A DNA stretch of 64,000 bases from a candidate division WOR-3 bacterium (GTDB taxonomy: Bacteria > Hydrothermota > Tepidihabitantia > SM23-42 > JAOAFX01). The notes below the pieces were generated by a model, which was not told where the DNA came from, did not search any database, and saw nothing but the letters and a program-made list of their open reading frames with translations. This document shows positions 25,604-32,800 of the stretch, one piece after another; the first letter of the stretch is position 1; each line of letters opens with the position of its first letter. The stretch is from the NCBI GenBank assembly GCA_039802005.1, contig JBDRVV010000009.1, forward strand, positions 3,549-67,548, read 5' to 3'. The position numbers and the translations under genes are program-made.

Positions 25604-26173
25604 ATGGATGTCTTTGAAGCAATCAAATGGCGGAGGAGCGTAAGAAAGTTTTTACCACAAAAGATAGAAAAAGAAAAAATTTTAAAAATACTTGAGGCTG
25701 GAAGGCTTGCCCCTTCTTCAAGCAACCGCCAGGCGTGGCATTTTATAGTTGTAGATGACGAAAATCTAATAAAACAAATCCCGGAAAAGGTTGTTATTGG
25801 CACGAAGAGTATCATATCATGGATCCAAGATGCCCCGCTTGTTATTGTTGGCTGCTACACAAAGGCAGTAACCCATTTCGTGGCAGGACTTTATGGAAGA
25901 GAAAATCATTTAATCGACATTACAATTGCAATGACCCATATGGTTCTTGAGGCAACCGAGCTTGGTATAGGTACCTGTTATATTGGCTGGTTCAATGAAA
26001 AGCACTTAAAGAAAATTTTAAAAATCCCTGACCATTACCGTGTTGCAATGCTCGTTGTAATGGGGTATCCTGCAGAGCCTTCTACACCAGATGGTATCGG
26101 TGGGATAAAACCAAGACCAAGAAAGGATCTAAAAGAAATTGTTTCATATAATATCTGGGGTAAAAACTTTTAA
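25604..26173 (+). CDS. Nitroreductase family protein
   Basis: RRSVRKF, APSSSNRQ.W.F, LGIGTCYIG. Confidence 0.9.
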   Translation: MDVFEAIKWRRSVRKFLPQKIEKEKILKILEAGRLAPSSSNRQAWHFIVVDDENLIKQIPEKVVIGTKSIISWIQDAPLVIVGCYTKAVTHFVAGLYGRENHLIDITIAMTHMVLEATELGIGTCYIGWFNEKHLKKILKIPDHYRVAMLVVMGYPAEPSTPDGIGGIKPRPRKDLKEIVSYNIWGKNF

Positions 26174-26211
26174 TTTTCCAATCTCTCAGTGCAATAAATA
26201 AGTTGAACAAT

Positions 26212-26237
26212 AAAAAGCCCCGGCATTAAGCCGGGGC
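26212..26237 (-). terminator. Rho-independent terminator
   Basis: GCCCCGGC-ttaat-GCCGGGGC then TTTTT on the minus strand, after gene end 26256. Confidence 0.8.
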
Positions 26238-26255
26238 CCTGATTTATATGTTTTT

Positions 26256-28265
26256 TTACCGGGTCAGGATGAATTTCTGGGTTATTATAGCATTATCTTT
26301 TTCAAGAACCACAAAATAAATACCATCAGAAAGTGCTTCAGCACGTGGATTCCAGTTGAGTATATTATCACCTTTTTTGATTGATATCTTTGCAACAAGC
26401 CTGCCATTAATGTCAAAAACTTTCAAGTAATTAGTCTTCAGATTGGTAGCATTAATTTCAAATGTTACAACATCCTTCACTGGATTAGGTACGACTTTCA
26501 GTAACCGGCTGTAAGCAACATTCTCTTTTTCTGACTCCTCAACTGGAGTTAGCGGTGTATAAAATCCTTTTACCTTAACAACCTGATTGACATAGGTACC
26601 ACTTATTTGAGCGATTGTTACCCAATAATTTCCATCCCTCGGGTCAAATTCAATTCCACGAATGTTCCAACCATAATTGAGAAGGAATTTTTTGCCTGTG
26701 AATATCGGTGGCGGACCTTGAAATTCAACAACACCGACACTATCAAGTGTCTGGCTTGCATTGAACCAGGTTTGAACATTGACGAAAGAATTGCCCAGTG
26801 AATCATACGCAAGGCAACGGGTATTCAAATATCCCTGAATCGGACTGTTATATTGAGTTGCACTACCAAGCGTATCACCGATATAAATCAGTTGTGTTGC
26901 ACCAAGTGCGGTTCTTCTATCTGCGTACCACATTGTATTAGGTGGTTTAAAAGCAAGACCAACAGGATAATCTTGGGCAGGATTACTGAATTGTCTGAGA
27001 ATTGCACCGGTAGATTTGTTAATCTTCCACACCATTTTCTGGGGATAATTGCAGACATATAGTCGGTCATCATATCTGCTATAGGATATATCAACCACAC
27101 TATCTTCAGGACCGGTAATTACGCCCATATATGTAACAAAACTATCCGAAGAATACTGCCTTATCTGATTGGAGTAAAAGTCAAGGACATATATCCTGTC
27201 GCCCAGTCGGTCATAGGCAAGGCCATAAATGAACTGGGTGCTTGGAAAATTGGGAAGATATTTCGGACCCCAGATAATTGTACCCGGTGCCATACCAACA
27301 CTATAGGAAAAAGTCCTTACCCAGGTTGACTCGGCAGAAGTAAGTACAAGCTGGAATTCAGCAATATGACCCGGTGGTGTTGATGCATGAACAGACAAAT
27401 CATAAGGGTCTGAAATATTATTGGCACTGACCCCTGCGTTCATTGTGCCATAGGTGTAGGTGGAATCGGTGATTGTAATATAAGGAGAAGTAGTTCGCAA
27501 TTTCCCCTGAACATTGGTTGCCGCCACAGTTCCCACATTTTTTATGTAGGTAACTATTCCCGCATTCTCTCCTGGGTCAAGTTTGCCATTGCCATTGTTG
27601 TCGTTTACAACCTTGGTGCTATCTAAGGTCAAAAATGGTTTATTGCTTAAATAAATGAGTTGTACATCATCGGCGAAGACCTTCGCCAGTTGTGCAGCCC
27701 CTCAGCAAGTATGGGCGGTAGTATCATAAAATGCTACTTCAATCTTTTGAACATTTGCTGGATTAACACCTGGTAAATTCTGCAGTTCACTTGCCAAACT
27801 GAATGAATGAGTATGCCATAGAGAATCATTGACCATAATCAAATGACAGGTTGGCGTATTCTGCCATGGACAGGGCGCAGTAAACTGACAAATACGCGTC
27901 TCACCTAACAAAACACCACTTGAATTACGATAGCCAATTATCACTGCGGCGGCCGCAAAAGTCAGGGTATCGGCATTATTATCATAAGCATAAATTTTTG
28001 CCTTAACCGAAAAGGTAACATTATTCACCGATGGAATATCAACAATCTGCCTCACCCGGGCATAGCCACTGCCCGTCTGTTTTTCTACACGCAGCTCATA
28101 ATCAGGGTCTGGTTCATAGGTGGTAGCACGGTCGATGTAGATATAATAACCTGAAGTATCCTTAGTCCACCCTACACTTATATCCTGCTCGAAATCTCCA
28201 TTGGTAATGAGATTCTGAGCAGAAACTGCACTAATAAACAACAGGATTGTTATTATTCCTCTCAT
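26256..28265 (-). CDS. Secreted protein (CBM-like domain, Ig-like domain, beta-propeller-like region, C-terminal sorting-type domain); predicted selenoprotein with Sec at TGA 27704-27702
   Basis: ORFs 27702-28280 and 26256-27632 are in the same frame, separated by one TGA: ...HTC*GAAQLAKVFADDVQL...; SECIS-like hairpin follows; signal peptide only on the first part, sorting domain only on the second; RBS before ATG 28265. Confidence 0.75.
27672..27687 (-). promoter_or_regulatory. Candidate bacterial SECIS element
   Basis: GGCGAA-GGUC-UUCGCC hairpin starting 14 nt after the in-frame UGA, loop 20 nt downstream. Confidence 0.65.
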
Positions 28266-28352
28266 TAAACCCCCTTTCAAACTTTAATTATCAGTTTTTA
28301 TGTTTATTTTTGTTATCCATCACCTCCTTTCTATCTATCTAAATCTCTTACC

Positions 28353-29705
28353 CTATTCTATCTTAACTACCTTGTGGGTACCTGCTTCCGGCAATCGAAT
28401 AAAATAGACACCTGAACGCAATTTTGAACAGTCAAAATAGCCGTTATCGGTGTGGGCAATATTCCTGCCACTGGCATCATATAGATATACAGTTTTTCCT
28501 GAAAATTCTGGGAGCACTATGTCTTTTTTGATAATGCTCGGTATCTTTATTTTTGATATCCCTTCTTGTTCTGTTTCTTCAACCCCAACAATTTCAATAT
28601 CAATATTGCCACGGATATCATACTGTGATGAAATATATTCACTCCAGACATTGAGATAACGATTATTGGCACCGGGAACGACATCAGCATAGTATATATT
28701 ATTTGTTGACGGTGAAATCCTAAACGCTGAACCAACCTGAAGACCGCTGGTATTGTATTTGACACCCCAAAGCTGATAGATACCGCCTACCTGGTACGAA
28801 TAGGTAACGAGATAATTTATCCCGTCAAACACAACGCGCGAAGACTTAAAATAATAAACCGGGGAAGCGATTGTAAATGGACTGCCAATAGGGGTACCCG
28901 TATTTGAAACTAACAGACCTTTCAAAGTGTATGGTGAACTCGTTTCATTCCAGATGACCATGAAATTAGCTCCACTGTATGCGACATCTACATTGTAGAT
29001 AGCTGCTGAAGCACTGGCTAATTGCAAGGTATCGCTCGCCATAGATCCATCTGGATTTACAAAACGTCCATAGACATGATAAGGTGCTGGAGTATAAACG
29101 CCCCAAACCACAAAATATCTCGTCCCGCCCCAGGTGACTGAAGGATAATAGTAGTATTGACTTGTGCCTATTGAAATTTGAATTCCTGTTGGGTCAAGAA
29201 CCGAACCACCGGGTGTAACCCGGGCGCCGTATATCTGATAAATATTGTTCCGATAGTCATGCCAGACTACAAAATAATTGCCACCCCCAAAAGTTATTTC
29301 TGGAGCATATTGAGCAGGTATAGGACCGTCATAATATATATAAAATGCTGAACCTAATGGGTCACAAGTCGGAGTGACACGCACTCCGCGGATATCACCA
29401 TAACTTCAACATCCTTCGCGCCAGACCACCAGAAAGTTTGTTCCATCATATGCTACTGCCGGTGTAAAGCAACTATCCTGAAATTGGAACTTTCCGTTTA
29501 AATCTATTACAGTACCGGTTGCCGAAACCCTTGCCCCGTATAAAGCGTACATATAGGAAGAAGAATTACGATAATCAGTCCAGAAGACATAATATTGATT
29601 GTTGGCAAAGGCAACACAGGGATATACCTCAATTGTATTAAGATTGGTTATAGCAAAATCCGCATTAAAGAGACTTAAGGTTAACATACCAATTATGCAA
29701 GCCAT
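28353..29705 (-). CDS. Secreted repeat (beta-propeller-like) protein with C-terminal sorting-type domain; predicted selenoprotein with Sec at TGA 29408-29406
   Basis: ORFs 29406-29705 and 28353-29384 are in frame across one TGA: VVWREGC*SYGDIRGVRV aligns without gaps to the next repeat VVWHDYRNNIYQIYGARV; AAGGAGG RBS. Confidence 0.78.
29370..29388 (-). promoter_or_regulatory. Candidate bacterial SECIS element
   Basis: CGGAGUG-CGUGU-CACUCCG hairpin starting 17 nt after the in-frame UGA. Confidence 0.65.
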
Positions 29706-29764
29706 AAGACCTCCTTTTAATTCTTTTGTTTCAAAACTCTTTCCGAGGTCATTTCTATGTTAAT

Positions 29765-29792
29765 ATTATATTCATAATTTGAGATTTGTCAA
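29765..29792 (-). promoter_or_regulatory. Sigma70-like promoter TTGACA-N16-TATAAT for the predicted selenoprotein operon
   Basis: Perfect hexamers read directly. Confidence 0.75.
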
Positions 29793-29840
29793 GGGGAAGG
29801 GGTTAGGTGCGAAATACCTTGAGATTTAGACATATTTATC

Positions 29841-29962: not shown

Positions 29963-32800
29963 CTAATCCATGATATCTTCTGGCAGAAGAAATAATTCTT
30001 CGGGCTCCAGCATTCCCCTACCTTCAATCAGGTCAATGAATTTCTGAGTTTCTTTTTTCAAGACAGGATAATCAGACTTCAAATACCGTCTTACAATTTC
30101 GGTCAGATGTTTTTTGTACTCGGTTGTCTTTTCCTTGTTATCCATTTTTGCGTATATCTTCGCCATTGTTTTTATCATTATGGCAATGTGTTGTTCATTT
30201 TTGGCCTTCTTCAGTTCTGCTTCTACCCTATCCAATGCGTACTTTCCAAGTTGTGCCATTCCTTCCATTGCAGCAATCTTTACAACATAAGAAGAATCGG
30301 TGAGCAGTTTTATTAAGATTGGGACACCGGTGGTATCTTTAATATTCTGCAATGCCTCAGCCACACGCAGTCTCATTCTTTCGTTCTTGTGTCTGTAGTA
30401 TTGATTAAAAATTGGAATCGCAAGGGTATCCTTCAATTTCCCGAGTGTATAGATCAAAACACCAGCAACCTTATCTTCGGGCTTTTTTTCAAGCATTAAT
30501 CTCAATGTATCCTTTGCCTTTGTGTATTCAAGTTGTCCAAATAGATATATGCAATTCCTCACAATTGTATCATTTTCATTATGCAGACCCTGGTATAAAT
30601 AAAAAGCAGCGGTATCCTTGAATGCCTTGAAAACTTCTTCAATCGCCCGCAGTTTGAGACCATCAAATGTCCGCATTTCGTTTTTAAAAATATATTCCAC
30701 TGCCCTTTCTTTGAATTCGTTTATCATGATTCTTCTGCCGGTCTTCGCTTTAGGAATATCCGCCCGGACCTCCCACAAAGAGCCATAATAAAAAAGCCTT
30801 GCCATCTTTGCCGAATCACTTTGCATTGTATCAATTTCGGGAAATGTAGTAATGGTATCTTCCCAGGGTTCTTTTTTGGGTTCCACTGCCTCAAGGTCCA
30901 TTCCTAAGGCATAAGTGCCGGAAGTCCAGATATGATTATTCTTGCCCTTGTCTTTCTCTGCATATCTATCTTCACCCTGCAAATCAATAAACAAACCTAT
31001 CCCACCAGTCCCCCGTGACCAGTTTGCACCACCCTGACTCATTCCTTCCCTTGAACAGTAGTCATCATTACCCCTGGTATCAACAAATATTCCAACAGAG
31101 TTTGTAAGACCTATCCCCTGTCCACCCGATGCATAATATACATCATCACCATCTTTATCTAAAAGCCAGCCAACTGCGACATCGTGTCCTTCACCCTGGG
31201 CAGGACCGAATCTACTAAAATAATGGTCATCACCTTCTAAGTCCACAAGTCCACCAATTGATAAATGAATCCCTGCACCCTGGGAATATTGTGCTGCAGA
31301 ATATAAATCATTTCCCTGTTCATCAAGTAGCATACCGAGTGCAAACCAGTATGAGGTTGCCTGCCCATAAACCTCAGAGATATATTTATCATTCCCAGAA
31401 CAATCATACAAAAATCCAATCCCACCTGATGCTACATCCCGCCAACCAAAACCAAACCCCTGAGCAAATGAACGAAACTGGTCAGGGTCTAAGGGCATAT
31501 GGAGATATTTCCCACCAGCATAATACAAATCATCACCCTCTCTATCATATAATAACCCATAGCCACAGGTACCGCCCATCCCCTGTGCCCAACAATATGA
31601 ATGATAAATGTCATCTTCTTTATAGTCAACTAAAATCCCTGAGCCAAAATTTCCAGCCCCCTGAACAAAGTAACCACCACGAAAATTATCAAAACCATCT
31701 TCGTCAATGAGTATACCGATTCCAAATAATCCTGCACCCTGACTGATATGGAATCCAGTATATGTATCATTCCCGGATATATCCCATAGTATCCCTGCAC
31801 CAAATAAACCAGCACCCTGATTGACAAGTTTGTTATAATTCCTATAGACATCATCTCCAGAAAGGTCAATGACAAAGCTCACTGGAGTATTCAATTCTCC
31901 AACCGCACCGGCACACCGACCAAGATATGTATCATTACCGCCCAGATCAATGATTACTGCAAAATCATTGTAGTAGATATTGTCATCAACACCACCAATA
32001 ACACCCTTAAATCCGCCGGGTAGTTCAAAGGTCTCGTAAACAAATCCCTTGACCCCGGATATCTCTTTGTAAGATAGATTTTCTTGCTTAGATAATTTTT
32101 CAGCAATCGCTTTTATCTTTTCAATTCCTTGGGCAAGAATGATACCAGCACAATGTATTTCACAAATATCTATCTTTTTGGCTAATTTTAATAATTGAAC
32201 AGTTTCAAGCGTGGTGACGGTGTCACGCTCAATTCCAAATTCTTTGTGTAAGGCACCTGCATATCCACGCTCAATAGAATCGGCCTCATCTGCCCAGAGT
32301 GATGGGGCGGTGTAGATTAGACTATCTTTTTGTTCGGGTGTGAGTTTGATAAATGCCTTATCAAGATGTTTTTTTGTGAGGGTATAAACCTCTTTTATTA
32401 AAGTAATAAAATCATCCGATTTAAGTTCTGCAAGGCTAACCTCTGGTTCTGAAAGAACCATCGGTTCTTGAAGAAAGCCTTGCCCTACATTGAATGTCCG
32501 TGATAAATTTTGCCCAATAATCTCTCCAGCACAAAATTTTATATAATCCGATGGGGTTTTTAAATTTTTTATTGTGTTTCCCGAATATAAAACATAATCA
32601 GGAACCGACATTGGTTTATCCATTAAATTTTTAACAACCGAAAGCCGAAAACTATCCTGTATCCAGTGTTTATCATATTCTAAGTCAATTTTTGAAAGAT
32701 TCAAGAGAGCCAAACCTTCAAAAATATATCTCCGCTCTACCTGCCATAAGGTATCAGGTTGTGGTAAGGGCAGGGTCAAAAATAAAATGAATGTGGCCAT
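29963..32800 (-). CDS. Large exported protein with repeated GxGxLxDxxGxDxY units and C-terminal HEAT repeats
   Basis: Signal-like N-terminus; many DxxGxDxY repeats; HEAT-like helices (VRLRVAEAL, VKIAAMEGM). Confidence 0.8.
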   Translation of the reverse strand: MATFILFLTLPLPQPDTLWQVERRYIFEGLALLNLSKIDLEYDKHWIQDSFRLSVVKNLMDKPMSVPDYVLYSGNTIKNLKTPSDYIKFCAGEIIGQNLSRTFNVGQGFLQEPMVLSEPEVSLAELKSDDFITLIKEVYTLTKKHLDKAFIKLTPEQKDSLIYTAPSLWADEADSIERGYAGALHKEFGIERDTVTTLETVQLLKLAKKIDICEIHCAGIILAQGIEKIKAIAEKLSKQENLSYKEISGVKGFVYETFELPGGFKGVIGGVDDNIYYNDFAVIIDLGGNDTYLGRCAGAVGELNTPVSFVIDLSGDDVYRNYNKLVNQGAGLFGAGILWDISGNDTYTGFHISQGAGLFGIGILIDEDGFDNFRGGYFVQGAGNFGSGILVDYKEDDIYHSYCWAQGMGGTCGYGLLYDREGDDLYYAGGKYLHMPLDPDQFRSFAQGFGFGWRDVASGGIGFLYDCSGNDKYISEVYGQATSYWFALGMLLDEQGNDLYSAAQYSQGAGIHLSIGGLVDLEGDDHYFSRFGPAQGEGHDVAVGWLLDKDGDDVYYASGGQGIGLTNSVGIFVDTRGNDDYCSREGMSQGGANWSRGTGGIGLFIDLQGEDRYAEKDKGKNNHIWTSGTYALGMDLEAVEPKKEPWEDTITTFPEIDTMQSDSAKMARLFYYGSLWEVRADIPKAKTGRRIMINEFKERAVEYIFKNEMRTFDGLKLRAIEEVFKAFKDTAAFYLYQGLHNENDTIVRNCIYLFGQLEYTKAKDTLRLMLEKKPEDKVAGVLIYTLGKLKDTLAIPIFNQYYRHKNERMRLRVAEALQNIKDTTGVPILIKLLTDSSYVVKIAAMEGMAQLGKYALDRVEAELKKAKNEQHIAIMIKTMAKIYAKMDNKEKTTEYKKHLTEIVRRYLKSDYPVLKKETQKFIDLIEGRGMLEPEELFLLPEDIMD
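32430..32488 (-). repeat. 59-bp REP-derived element, intragenic copy
   Basis: Identical to 33476-33534; encodes VGQGFLQEPMVLSEPEVSLA within the 945-aa ORF. Confidence 0.85.

Follow-up and report, generated by a model that had tools for sequence, protein, structure and literature searches.

Two adjacent genes of a candidate division WOR-3 bacterium, each with one in-frame TGA and a conserved downstream hairpin, very probably encode selenoproteins with predicted export signals

Two genes interrupted by a single in-frame TGA

The window analysed is a 64,000-nucleotide stretch of contig JBDRVV010000009.1 (assembly GCA_039802005.1, positions 3,549 to 67,548 of the forward strand), cited here as contig C9, from the 2.54-Mb genome (37% GC) of a candidate division WOR-3 bacterium. 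Two genes on its minus strand, gene A (28353..29705) and gene B (26256..28265), each contain one in-frame TGA directly after a cysteine codon, followed by a GC-rich hairpin resembling a selenocysteine insertion sequence (SECIS). From the sequence data we conclude that both are very probably intact selenoprotein genes, in each of which UGA is read as selenocysteine (Sec). Direct support exists for conservation of the UGA, for selection on a hairpin of SECIS type, for the presence of Sec and type IX secretion system (T9SS) machinery and for the folds, and we infer the identity of the residue as Sec, the export route and the function.

Gene A starts at ATG 29705, 8 nucleotides (nt) after AAAGGAGG, and runs as one continuous frame of 450 codons to the stop TAG at 28353-28355. 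Its single TGA (29406-29408) lies immediately 3′ of TGT (Cys99) in the context ...VVWREGC-U-SYGDIRGVRVTPTCD... (REGC-U-SYG), the Cys99-Sec100 codons (TGT TGA) occupying 29406..29411. Gene B starts at ATG 28265 and ends with TAA at 26256-26258, one continuous frame of 669 codons with a single TGA (27702-27704) immediately 3′ of TGC (Cys187), in the context ...DTTAHTC-U-GAAQLAKVFADDV... (AHTC-U-GAA); the codons of Cys187-Sec188 (TGC TGA) are at 27702..27707. Open reading frame (ORF) callers cut gene A into 29406-29705 and 28353-29384, and gene B into 27702-28280 and 26256-27632, both pieces lying in the same frame in each case. An earlier interpretation made from the letters of the window (the sequence-only reading) had merged these four ORFs into two genes with one in-frame TGA each, right after Cys, and re-reading of the frames confirmed it. 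Full-length homologues and a 44%-identical paralogue align with gene A straight through the TGA.

The AlphaFold model of the gene A product is a beta-propeller (predicted local distance difference test, pLDDT, 83.1) with a generic likeness to sialidase-, GH145- and PL42-type propellers. It is made of a repeat of about 50 residues, 'FDGTNFLVVWxDxR..IYGARV..G.VLD', which is abundant in WOR-3 proteins. The Cys-Sec pair is located in blade 2, in the loop that follows its 'VVW' strand, and the equivalent loops of blades 1 and 3 have an invariant D-x-R. The N-terminal hydrophobic segment MACIIGMLTLSLFNA (29661..29705, minus strand), a probable signal peptide of atypical form as judged by eye, is kept among homologues and was modelled as a low-confidence helix; a weak T9SS-type sorting domain is at the C-terminus (28356..28514, minus strand).

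Gene B begins with MRGIITILLFISAVSAQ, by eye a typical signal peptide of the Sec export pathway, located 5′ of the TGA. Next is an N-terminal beta-sandwich 'head' (27651..28214, minus strand) resembling a carbohydrate-binding module (CBM), and then a stalk composed of a CARDB-like domain, a propeller and a sorting domain. In the head model (pLDDT 83.5) the TGA position falls in a seven-residue turn between the last two strands (157-167 and 175-188), that is, just before the last strand. Foldseek against the PDB found CBM16, CBM4, CBM11, CBM22 and the Fbs1 sugar-binding domain at probability 1.0 and template modelling (TM) scores of about 0.45-0.5. The stalk is 77% identical to that of a TGA-less subtilisin-like protease on contig C22, and the Sec domain of gene B thus takes the position of a catalytic head. 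The T9SS type A sorting domain (26259..26492, minus strand) scored 40.7 bits against TIGR04183 (cut-off 23) and 42.2 bits against PF18962 (cut-off 27).

Conservation of the TGA codon

Homologues were examined in 61 related genomes, up to class level, and in a phylum-wide sample of 151 genomes. Within the genome, the 44%-identical family A paralogue on contig C42, full-length, reads ...RDSC-TGA-SAGNIVGVRV... at the aligned codon. Two paralogues of the gene B head, one on C22 (59% identical) and one on C2 (26% identical), likewise have the TGA at the aligned codon, in the contexts ...AHTC-TGA-GASQLAKVFADDV... and ...SYGC-TGA-PFHAEAKVFADDI..., respectively.

Family B was found in 46 of the 61 related genomes, with exactly one TGA in 94 of the 95 matches spanning the site. 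Phylum-wide it is present in 42 of 151 genomes and 26 of 79 genera, and 92 of 94 among the matches listed have the TGA. For family A, at least about 131 of the matches listed carry one TGA, and almost all of these have frames of about 430-500 codons, with a few shorter or longer ones; the 19 TGA-less matches of that search are ordinary repeat propellers with frames of about 590-950 codons, apart from one of 458 codons and one downstream fragment. Altogether, the same TGA and hairpin are found in well over 200 homologous genes, kept at the aligned position as the sequence-only reading had proposed to check.

A few full-span relatives of family B have no Sec; P0070, P0077, P0030 and P0096 carry a Cys in the same loop, and the others do not. 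A stand-alone gene B head was found in a higher-GC WOR-3 metagenome-assembled genome (MAG) (L119:2501-3130). It reads ...SSAC-U-GLWLGAEVSARFVSLKPAPVR-stop, with the stop 22 codons past U and the hairpin GGGGCGGA-GGUC-UCCGCCC; the Sec domain of family B can therefore exist without stalk or sorting domain.

Public annotation splits these genes. A family B profile run against 1.84 billion representative proteins gave 220 matches, mostly ORFs of 180-200 residues ending just before the Sec position, which is the signature of gene callers stopping at UGA. The downstream piece of gene A is deposited separately, as a near-identical 343-residue 'T9SS type A sorting domain-containing protein' starting from a GTG after the TGA. 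Hundreds of public records are divided in this manner, one part being a short 'hypothetical protein' and the other a 'T9SS sorting domain protein' that lacks its head, and consequently WOR-3 gene counts, domain architectures and secretome predictions are wrong at these loci.

Hairpins downstream of the TGA codons

Hairpin A (CGGAGTG-CGTGT-CACTCCG; 29370..29388, minus strand) has a stem of 7 bp and the loop CGUGU, which starts 24 nt past the UGA. Folded alone it has a minimum free energy (MFE) of -10.6 kcal/mol, and only 1 of 200 shuffled sequences folds as well. Hairpin B (GGCGAA-GGTC-TTCGCC; 27672..27687, minus strand) has a stem of 6-7 bp and the loop GGUC starting 20 nt past the UGA, with an MFE of -8.8 kcal/mol reached by 0 of 200 shuffles. 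The loops of these GC-rich hairpins lie at the 20-24 nt first reported. In the bacterial SECIS (bSECIS) model the loop is 3-9 nt, the stem 4-16 bp, the UGA-to-loop distance 16-37 nt and the MFE -7.5 kcal/mol or lower, with G at loop position 1 or 2 followed by G or U (PMC13188914). Both hairpins, with loops of 4-5 nt and stems of 6-7 bp, conform to this model in all of these features, the outcome of the bSECISearch-type check recommended earlier.

In an alignment of 44 sequences, 89.9% of the cells of hairpin A are paired, and its covariation was reached by 0 of 500 shuffles. The third bases of the Gly and Thr codons in G-V-R-V-T (columns 24-36) form AU in 27, CG in 5, GU in 5, GC in 3 and UA in 2 sequences, so that 42 of 44 are paired, versus 36% expected from codon usage alone. 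For hairpin B (35 distinct sequences) 95.5% of the cells are paired, three pairs show compensatory changes, and again 0 of 500 shuffles reached the observed covariation. As a set, its codons GCG-AAG-GTC-TTC-GCC would be expected with a probability of 4.5e-4 from genome codon usage, yet they are nearly invariant. In one subfamily GGCGAA..UUCGCC is changed to GGCGGA..UCCGCC, which keeps the pair and turns the protein from A-K-V-F-A into A-E-V-S-A; this paired change of K to E and F to S is an unusually clear example of an RNA structure prevailing over the sequence of the protein. Further variants of hairpin B are AGCGAA..UUCGCU, GGCAAA..UUUGCC and CGCGAA..UUCGCG. Judged from these alignments, both hairpins are under selection as RNA.

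The GGUC loop of hairpin B, which resembles the apical loop of fdhF, is also present in both HdrA2 selenoprotein genes of the same genome. The selD hairpin of the genome, compared with hairpins A and B, is weak and shows no obvious likeness to them.

Selenocysteine machinery and genetic code

The genome has the machinery whose presence the sequence-only reading had asked for, with tRNA-Sec, SelA, SelB and SelD each scoring over the curated cut-off. The tRNA-Sec gene (78.3 bits versus a cut-off of 47; called tRNA-SeC with anticodon TCA by ARAGORN) is directly adjoined by selB (344 bits) and selA (541 bits) on contig C1 (locus C1:122518-125879), and selD (325 bits; C22:17404-18315) carries an in-frame TGA of its own. 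Together with selD, the conventional selenoproteins here are two HdrA2-type genes (C44:882 and C44:10208; C-x-x-U), members of a known selenoprotein family (1189 bits to NF040770). With these components, SelB with Sec-tRNA(Sec) would bind the hairpin, which starts 14-17 nt past the UGA, Sec would be inserted at the UGA, and translation would run on to give a 450-residue A and a 669-residue B.

Genome-wide reassignment of TGA (code 4 or 25) was also considered. It is excluded because TGA is the stop codon of 442 of the 1374 ORFs of at least 250 codons, and there are only about 20 credible in-frame TGAs in its 2.5 Mb.

Family B follows selA across genomes. Among the 61 relatives, 49 have selA, and the 2 × 2 table of family B and selA (44, 2, 5, 10) gives a Fisher p of 1.8e-6. 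The two genomes with family B and no selA are fragmented assemblies, and in one of them part of selA is present at the edge of a contig. None of the seven class-level genomes that lack selA has family B or, among the matches listed, TGA-type family A. In three genomes, family B genes are located 0.3-6 kb from selA (G039, C137:7846-10114; G037, C1:1642995-1645917; G012, C48:44475-52622).

The Cys-Sec pair and its possible function

The sequence-only reading described a vicinal Cys-Sec pair in both proteins. In family A, C-U is present in 42 of 44 distinct members, the exceptions being one R-U and one G-U-C. The G-U-C member (L117, G019:C16:29619-30383) reads ...DSIG-U-C-YGNICGVRV, with the order of Sec and Cys reversed. 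In the truncated representatives of family B, the last residue is Cys in about two thirds and Gly in about a fifth, and C-x-x precedes the TGA in a few. The pair is frequent, not defining.

In redox-type selenoproteins a Cys adjoins the Sec or lies no more than three residues away (CxxU, UxxC, CU; PMC13188914 Table 1). Since the Cys near Sec in families A and B matches this arrangement, a reactive selenenylsulfide/selenol centre is favoured. By analogy we tentatively regard the Sec, usually with a Cys nearby (C-U, C-x-x-U, U-C), as a redox-active selenenylsulfide/selenol centre on a surface loop, which would react with thiols, polysulfide or sulfur, or oxidants. Two observations count against this functional assignment: the neighbouring Cys is absent in about a fifth of family B, and the His two residues 5′ of the Cys is not universal. 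That the Sec site instead binds a soft metal or metalloid seems rather doubtful.

A structural role is improbable. The Sec would then be inserted to form a Se-S cross-link of low potential that remains closed under reducing, sulfidic conditions, a role that would suit Cys114 of family A, nearly invariant overall and invariant in closer family members, 14 residues past the Sec of gene A, as well as Cys126 and Cys132, both invariant in the main clade of family B. Selenenylsulfides have reduction potentials below those of disulfides, which is also in its favour. However, Cys114 is lost in whole subclades of family A that keep C-U (L099-L111, L115, L118), and the C2 paralogue of gene B keeps C-U without the distal Cys. 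Moreover, linking a Cys to the Sec next to it would hold no separate parts together, and the location of the Sec domain of gene B at the 'head' position, held by a subtilase on the 77%-identical stalk, suggests an active module.

Alternative readings of the UGA codons

Several results weigh against reading genes A and B as exported selenoproteins. Rfam 15, searched at a permissive threshold over 26200-29800, gave no SECIS family and only noise matches at the terminator. No Cys-for-Sec homologue of family A was found, its non-Sec relatives having an unrelated D-x-R-x-G loop. The N-terminus of gene A lacks a basic n-region, which makes the signal peptide atypical (by eye), and its tail scored under the curated cut-offs (TIGR04183, 21.4 bits versus 23; PF18962, 21.1 versus 27).

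The first two of these results, and the reliance on sequence evidence alone, leave some room for recoding of the UGA without Sec, in which ribosomes are slowed by the hairpin and the codon is read through by a suppressor or by a near-cognate tRNA for Trp or Cys, with no selenium involved; a Cys-form homologue usually accompanies a true selenoprotein. We nevertheless consider such recoding very unlikely. Both hairpins conform to the bSECIS model, including the G[G/U] at the loop start, and the GGUC loop is common to hairpin B and the HdrA2 selenoprotein genes of the same genome. Family B follows selA across genomes and sometimes adjoins it, and Sec redox motifs typically have a Cys in such a place, adjoining the site or no more than three residues away.

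It is still less probable that the UGA is a true stop, giving either four separate products or two short secreted fragments with remainders that are untranslated or separately started. Gene callers and public annotation agree with this view, as seen in the 343-residue piece of gene A from GTG and the 180-200-residue ORFs of family B. Yet in the models such a stop would cut the beta-sandwich before its last strand and cut a propeller blade. Neither downstream piece has its own signal peptide, and a sorting domain there would therefore be useless. Furthermore, in over 200 genes, some as little as 26% identical, both the frame and the amino-acid conservation extend past the TGA, and the hairpin is under RNA-level selection.

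Pseudogenes or assembly errors, which a single MAG window alone could not exclude, are effectively refuted, since the same TGA codon, with no other frame disruptions, is found in three paralogues within the genome and in dozens of other genomes that were assembled independently.

Predicted export by the type IX secretion system

The T9SS core was found in the genome, with PorU at 478 bits (cut-off 420) and SprA/Sov at 313.8 bits (cut-off 200), together with about 45 sorting-domain matches. Given this machinery, it can reasonably be inferred that the product of gene B is a T9SS cargo, and the product of gene A is a probable one. An export signal before and a sorting domain after the TGA were originally described for both genes; in gene B a signal-like segment precedes the TGA and a clear sorting domain follows it, whereas in gene A both are weak. 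The gene A tail has a weak resemblance to the C-terminal domain of gingipain (E = 0.11, profile search against PDB sequences).

Both proteins would leave the cytoplasm by the Sec pathway, after which the T9SS would take over via the C-terminal sorting domain. A UGA-terminated product could not be sorted, because the sorting domain lies 3′ of the UGA, and only the full-length, Sec-containing product would reach the surface. From the gene layout alone comes the idea that read-through of the UGA may gate export.

Other candidate secreted selenoproteins in the genome

The other sorting-domain proteins of the genome, which it had been proposed to scan for TGA, yielded further candidate Sec-UGAs. 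One cluster (G000:C22:36852-45075) contains the TGA-less S8 subtilase, an Omp28-like protein with T-U-GSC (TGA 39816), a family B paralogue (TGA 41362) and a BNR/Asp-box protein with G-U-G (TGA 44028). The last is one of three paralogous BNR/Asp-box proteins of about 760 residues (C16:21527, C22:44028 and C37:10165) with T9SS tails and matches to NF045728 (F510_1955-like). Each has one TGA (EG[SL]G-U-G), which is followed by the hairpin GACGG-CGGGU-CCGUC overlapping the 'TDGGSVW' Asp-box. Judged by these features, they appear to form another family of secreted selenoproteins, the third after A and B.

The TGA of an NHL-like propeller protein that has a T9SS tail (C1:132705-133880) and is homologous to the propeller of gene B occurs in YGT-U-ASC (UxxC); its gene and the tRNA-Sec/selB/selA locus are about 8 kb apart. 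In two T9SS-tailed proteins of about 350 residues (C4:21212 and C22:39816), the motifs G-U-ASC and T-U-GSC, respectively, are found near residue 37, and both proteins show a distant likeness to NF045500, scoring far under its cut-off. The presence of these two T9SS-tailed Omp28-like relatives makes exported selenoproteins a theme of this genome.

In total, about 11 candidate genes for secreted selenoproteins were found versus 3 for cytoplasmic ones. At least five unrelated cargo types have a conserved, putative Sec-UGA 5′ of the sorting domain: family A, family B, the BNR/Asp-box G-U-G proteins, the NHL-like U-A-S-C protein and the Omp28-like UxxC proteins. These sequence features suggest that WOR-3 bacteria quite possibly keep a selenoproteome displayed on the cell surface by the T9SS. 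If this is true, most of their selenocysteine would be spent outside the cytoplasm and in folds that are not thioredoxin-like, a plausible use being sulfur, polysulfide or metal chemistry outside the cell in the anoxic sediment of hot springs. The supply of selenium would then set surface display, because termination at the UGA removes the sorting domain.

Relation to known systems

A 2026 catalogue of 119 prokaryotic selenoprotein families (PMC13188914) contains neither family A nor family B. The two merged proteins matched sorting-domain models only, and no selenoprotein model, in NCBIfam release 20, and in Pfam they likewise gave sorting-domain matches only and no CBM family. Profile searches against PDB sequences gave nothing significant for either protein, and a full-text literature search for selenoproteins with type IX secretion, or for WOR-3 with selenocysteine, found nothing relevant. 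Families A and B are apparently uncatalogued selenoprotein families, with ordinary Sec insertion but new folds and a new cellular location. The unusual class of exported selenoproteins announced in the sequence-only reading holds in that the families are uncatalogued; it is not wholly unprecedented, given the Omp28-related family compared below. If real, such large, lineage-wide families would widen where and in which folds selenium is used, and would point to chemistry outside the cell for which, in these habitats, cysteine is inadequate.

Periplasmic formate dehydrogenases and hydrogenases are known secreted bacterial selenoproteins, and to our knowledge almost every bacterial selenoprotein described so far is an oxidoreductase of the cytoplasm or periplasm whose active site is thioredoxin-like or contains a metal cofactor. 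Genes A and B share with bacterial selenoprotein genes of the E. coli fdhF type the UGA, a G[G/U] apical loop within 16-37 nt and the Sec machinery (bSECIS model, PMC13188914 Fig. 2A). They differ in lying outside the catalogued oxidoreductase families, with a beta-propeller, a CBM-like sandwich and secretion signals. The Omp28-related selenoprotein (NF045500, 'hypothetical protein GOS_C', UxxC) is a catalogued non-cytoplasmic selenoprotein family, but it has another fold and a UxxC motif, and A and B have no match to NF045500.

The head of gene B shares the beta-sandwich fold with type B/C modules (CBM16, CBM4, CBM11, CBM22) and the Fbs1 domain, and has an NGDFE start and a hydrophobic-x-D-D last strand, as is usual for such modules. 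It has no sequence match to a CBM Pfam family or a PDB chain. Of the carbohydrate-binding and propeller folds first suggested, propeller and CBM-like sandwich folds are indeed predicted, the CBM being a fold likeness and not a membership. We know of no CBM that contains selenocysteine.

Mammalian thioredoxin reductase carries GCUG. There the pair is penultimate in the flexible tail of a flavoprotein, whereas the pairs of A (residues 99-100 of 450) and B (187-188 of 669) are internal, in proteins with no flavoprotein domain. Selenoproteins with a CU motif, namely SaoL (NF040728), HgcA (NF040863), SaoC and MbdU, have been linked to organometallic chemistry (bioRxiv 10.1101/2022.07.06.499078). 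With these families, and with KCU-star and Csac_0668, A and B have in common the adjacent Cys-Sec and database entries truncated at the aligned Cys before the UGA. In contrast, they show no sequence relationship to them (no NCBIfam match), their pair lies in an internal surface loop of a predicted exported protein, the neighbouring Cys is dispensable in part of family B, and the setting is not a cytoplasmic organometallic system.

Gene A can also be compared with the WOR-3 'FDGTNFLVVWxDxR...IYGARV' propellers (PF12396-positive, about 450-950 residues), which have the same blade of about 50 residues and about 40% identity to gene A. These have no TGA and no Cys in the loop, unlike family A, a shorter derivative (about 430-480 residues) with C-U inserted in blade 2.

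Promoter, terminator and neighbouring genes

A sigma-70-like promoter, TTGACA-N16-TATAAT, is located upstream of gene A (29765..29792, minus strand; a 12/12 match, identified by consensus only). At the 3′ side of gene B, a hairpin followed by a T run resembles an intrinsic terminator (26214..26240, minus strand; an 11-pair stem with 8 GC and a T-rich tail, likewise a consensus match only). The sequence-only reading had placed both genes under one promoter and one terminator. Both motifs are present, and the two closest relatives (G001 and G011) also have A and B in tandem. In three further genomes (G002, G021 and G044) families A and B lie within a few kb of each other. The two families are unrelated, and because the tandem is limited to the closest relatives, a one-promoter operon or a 'system' is only plausible.

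Converging on the terminator of gene B is a nitroreductase-like ORF on the plus strand (25604-26173, MDVFEAIKWRRSVRKF...), with no evident link to the selenoprotein genes. Upstream of the gene A promoter, the minus strand (29963-32800) encodes a 945-residue protein with many short repeats of the 'GxDxY/GNDxY' type and a HEAT-like helical C-terminus.

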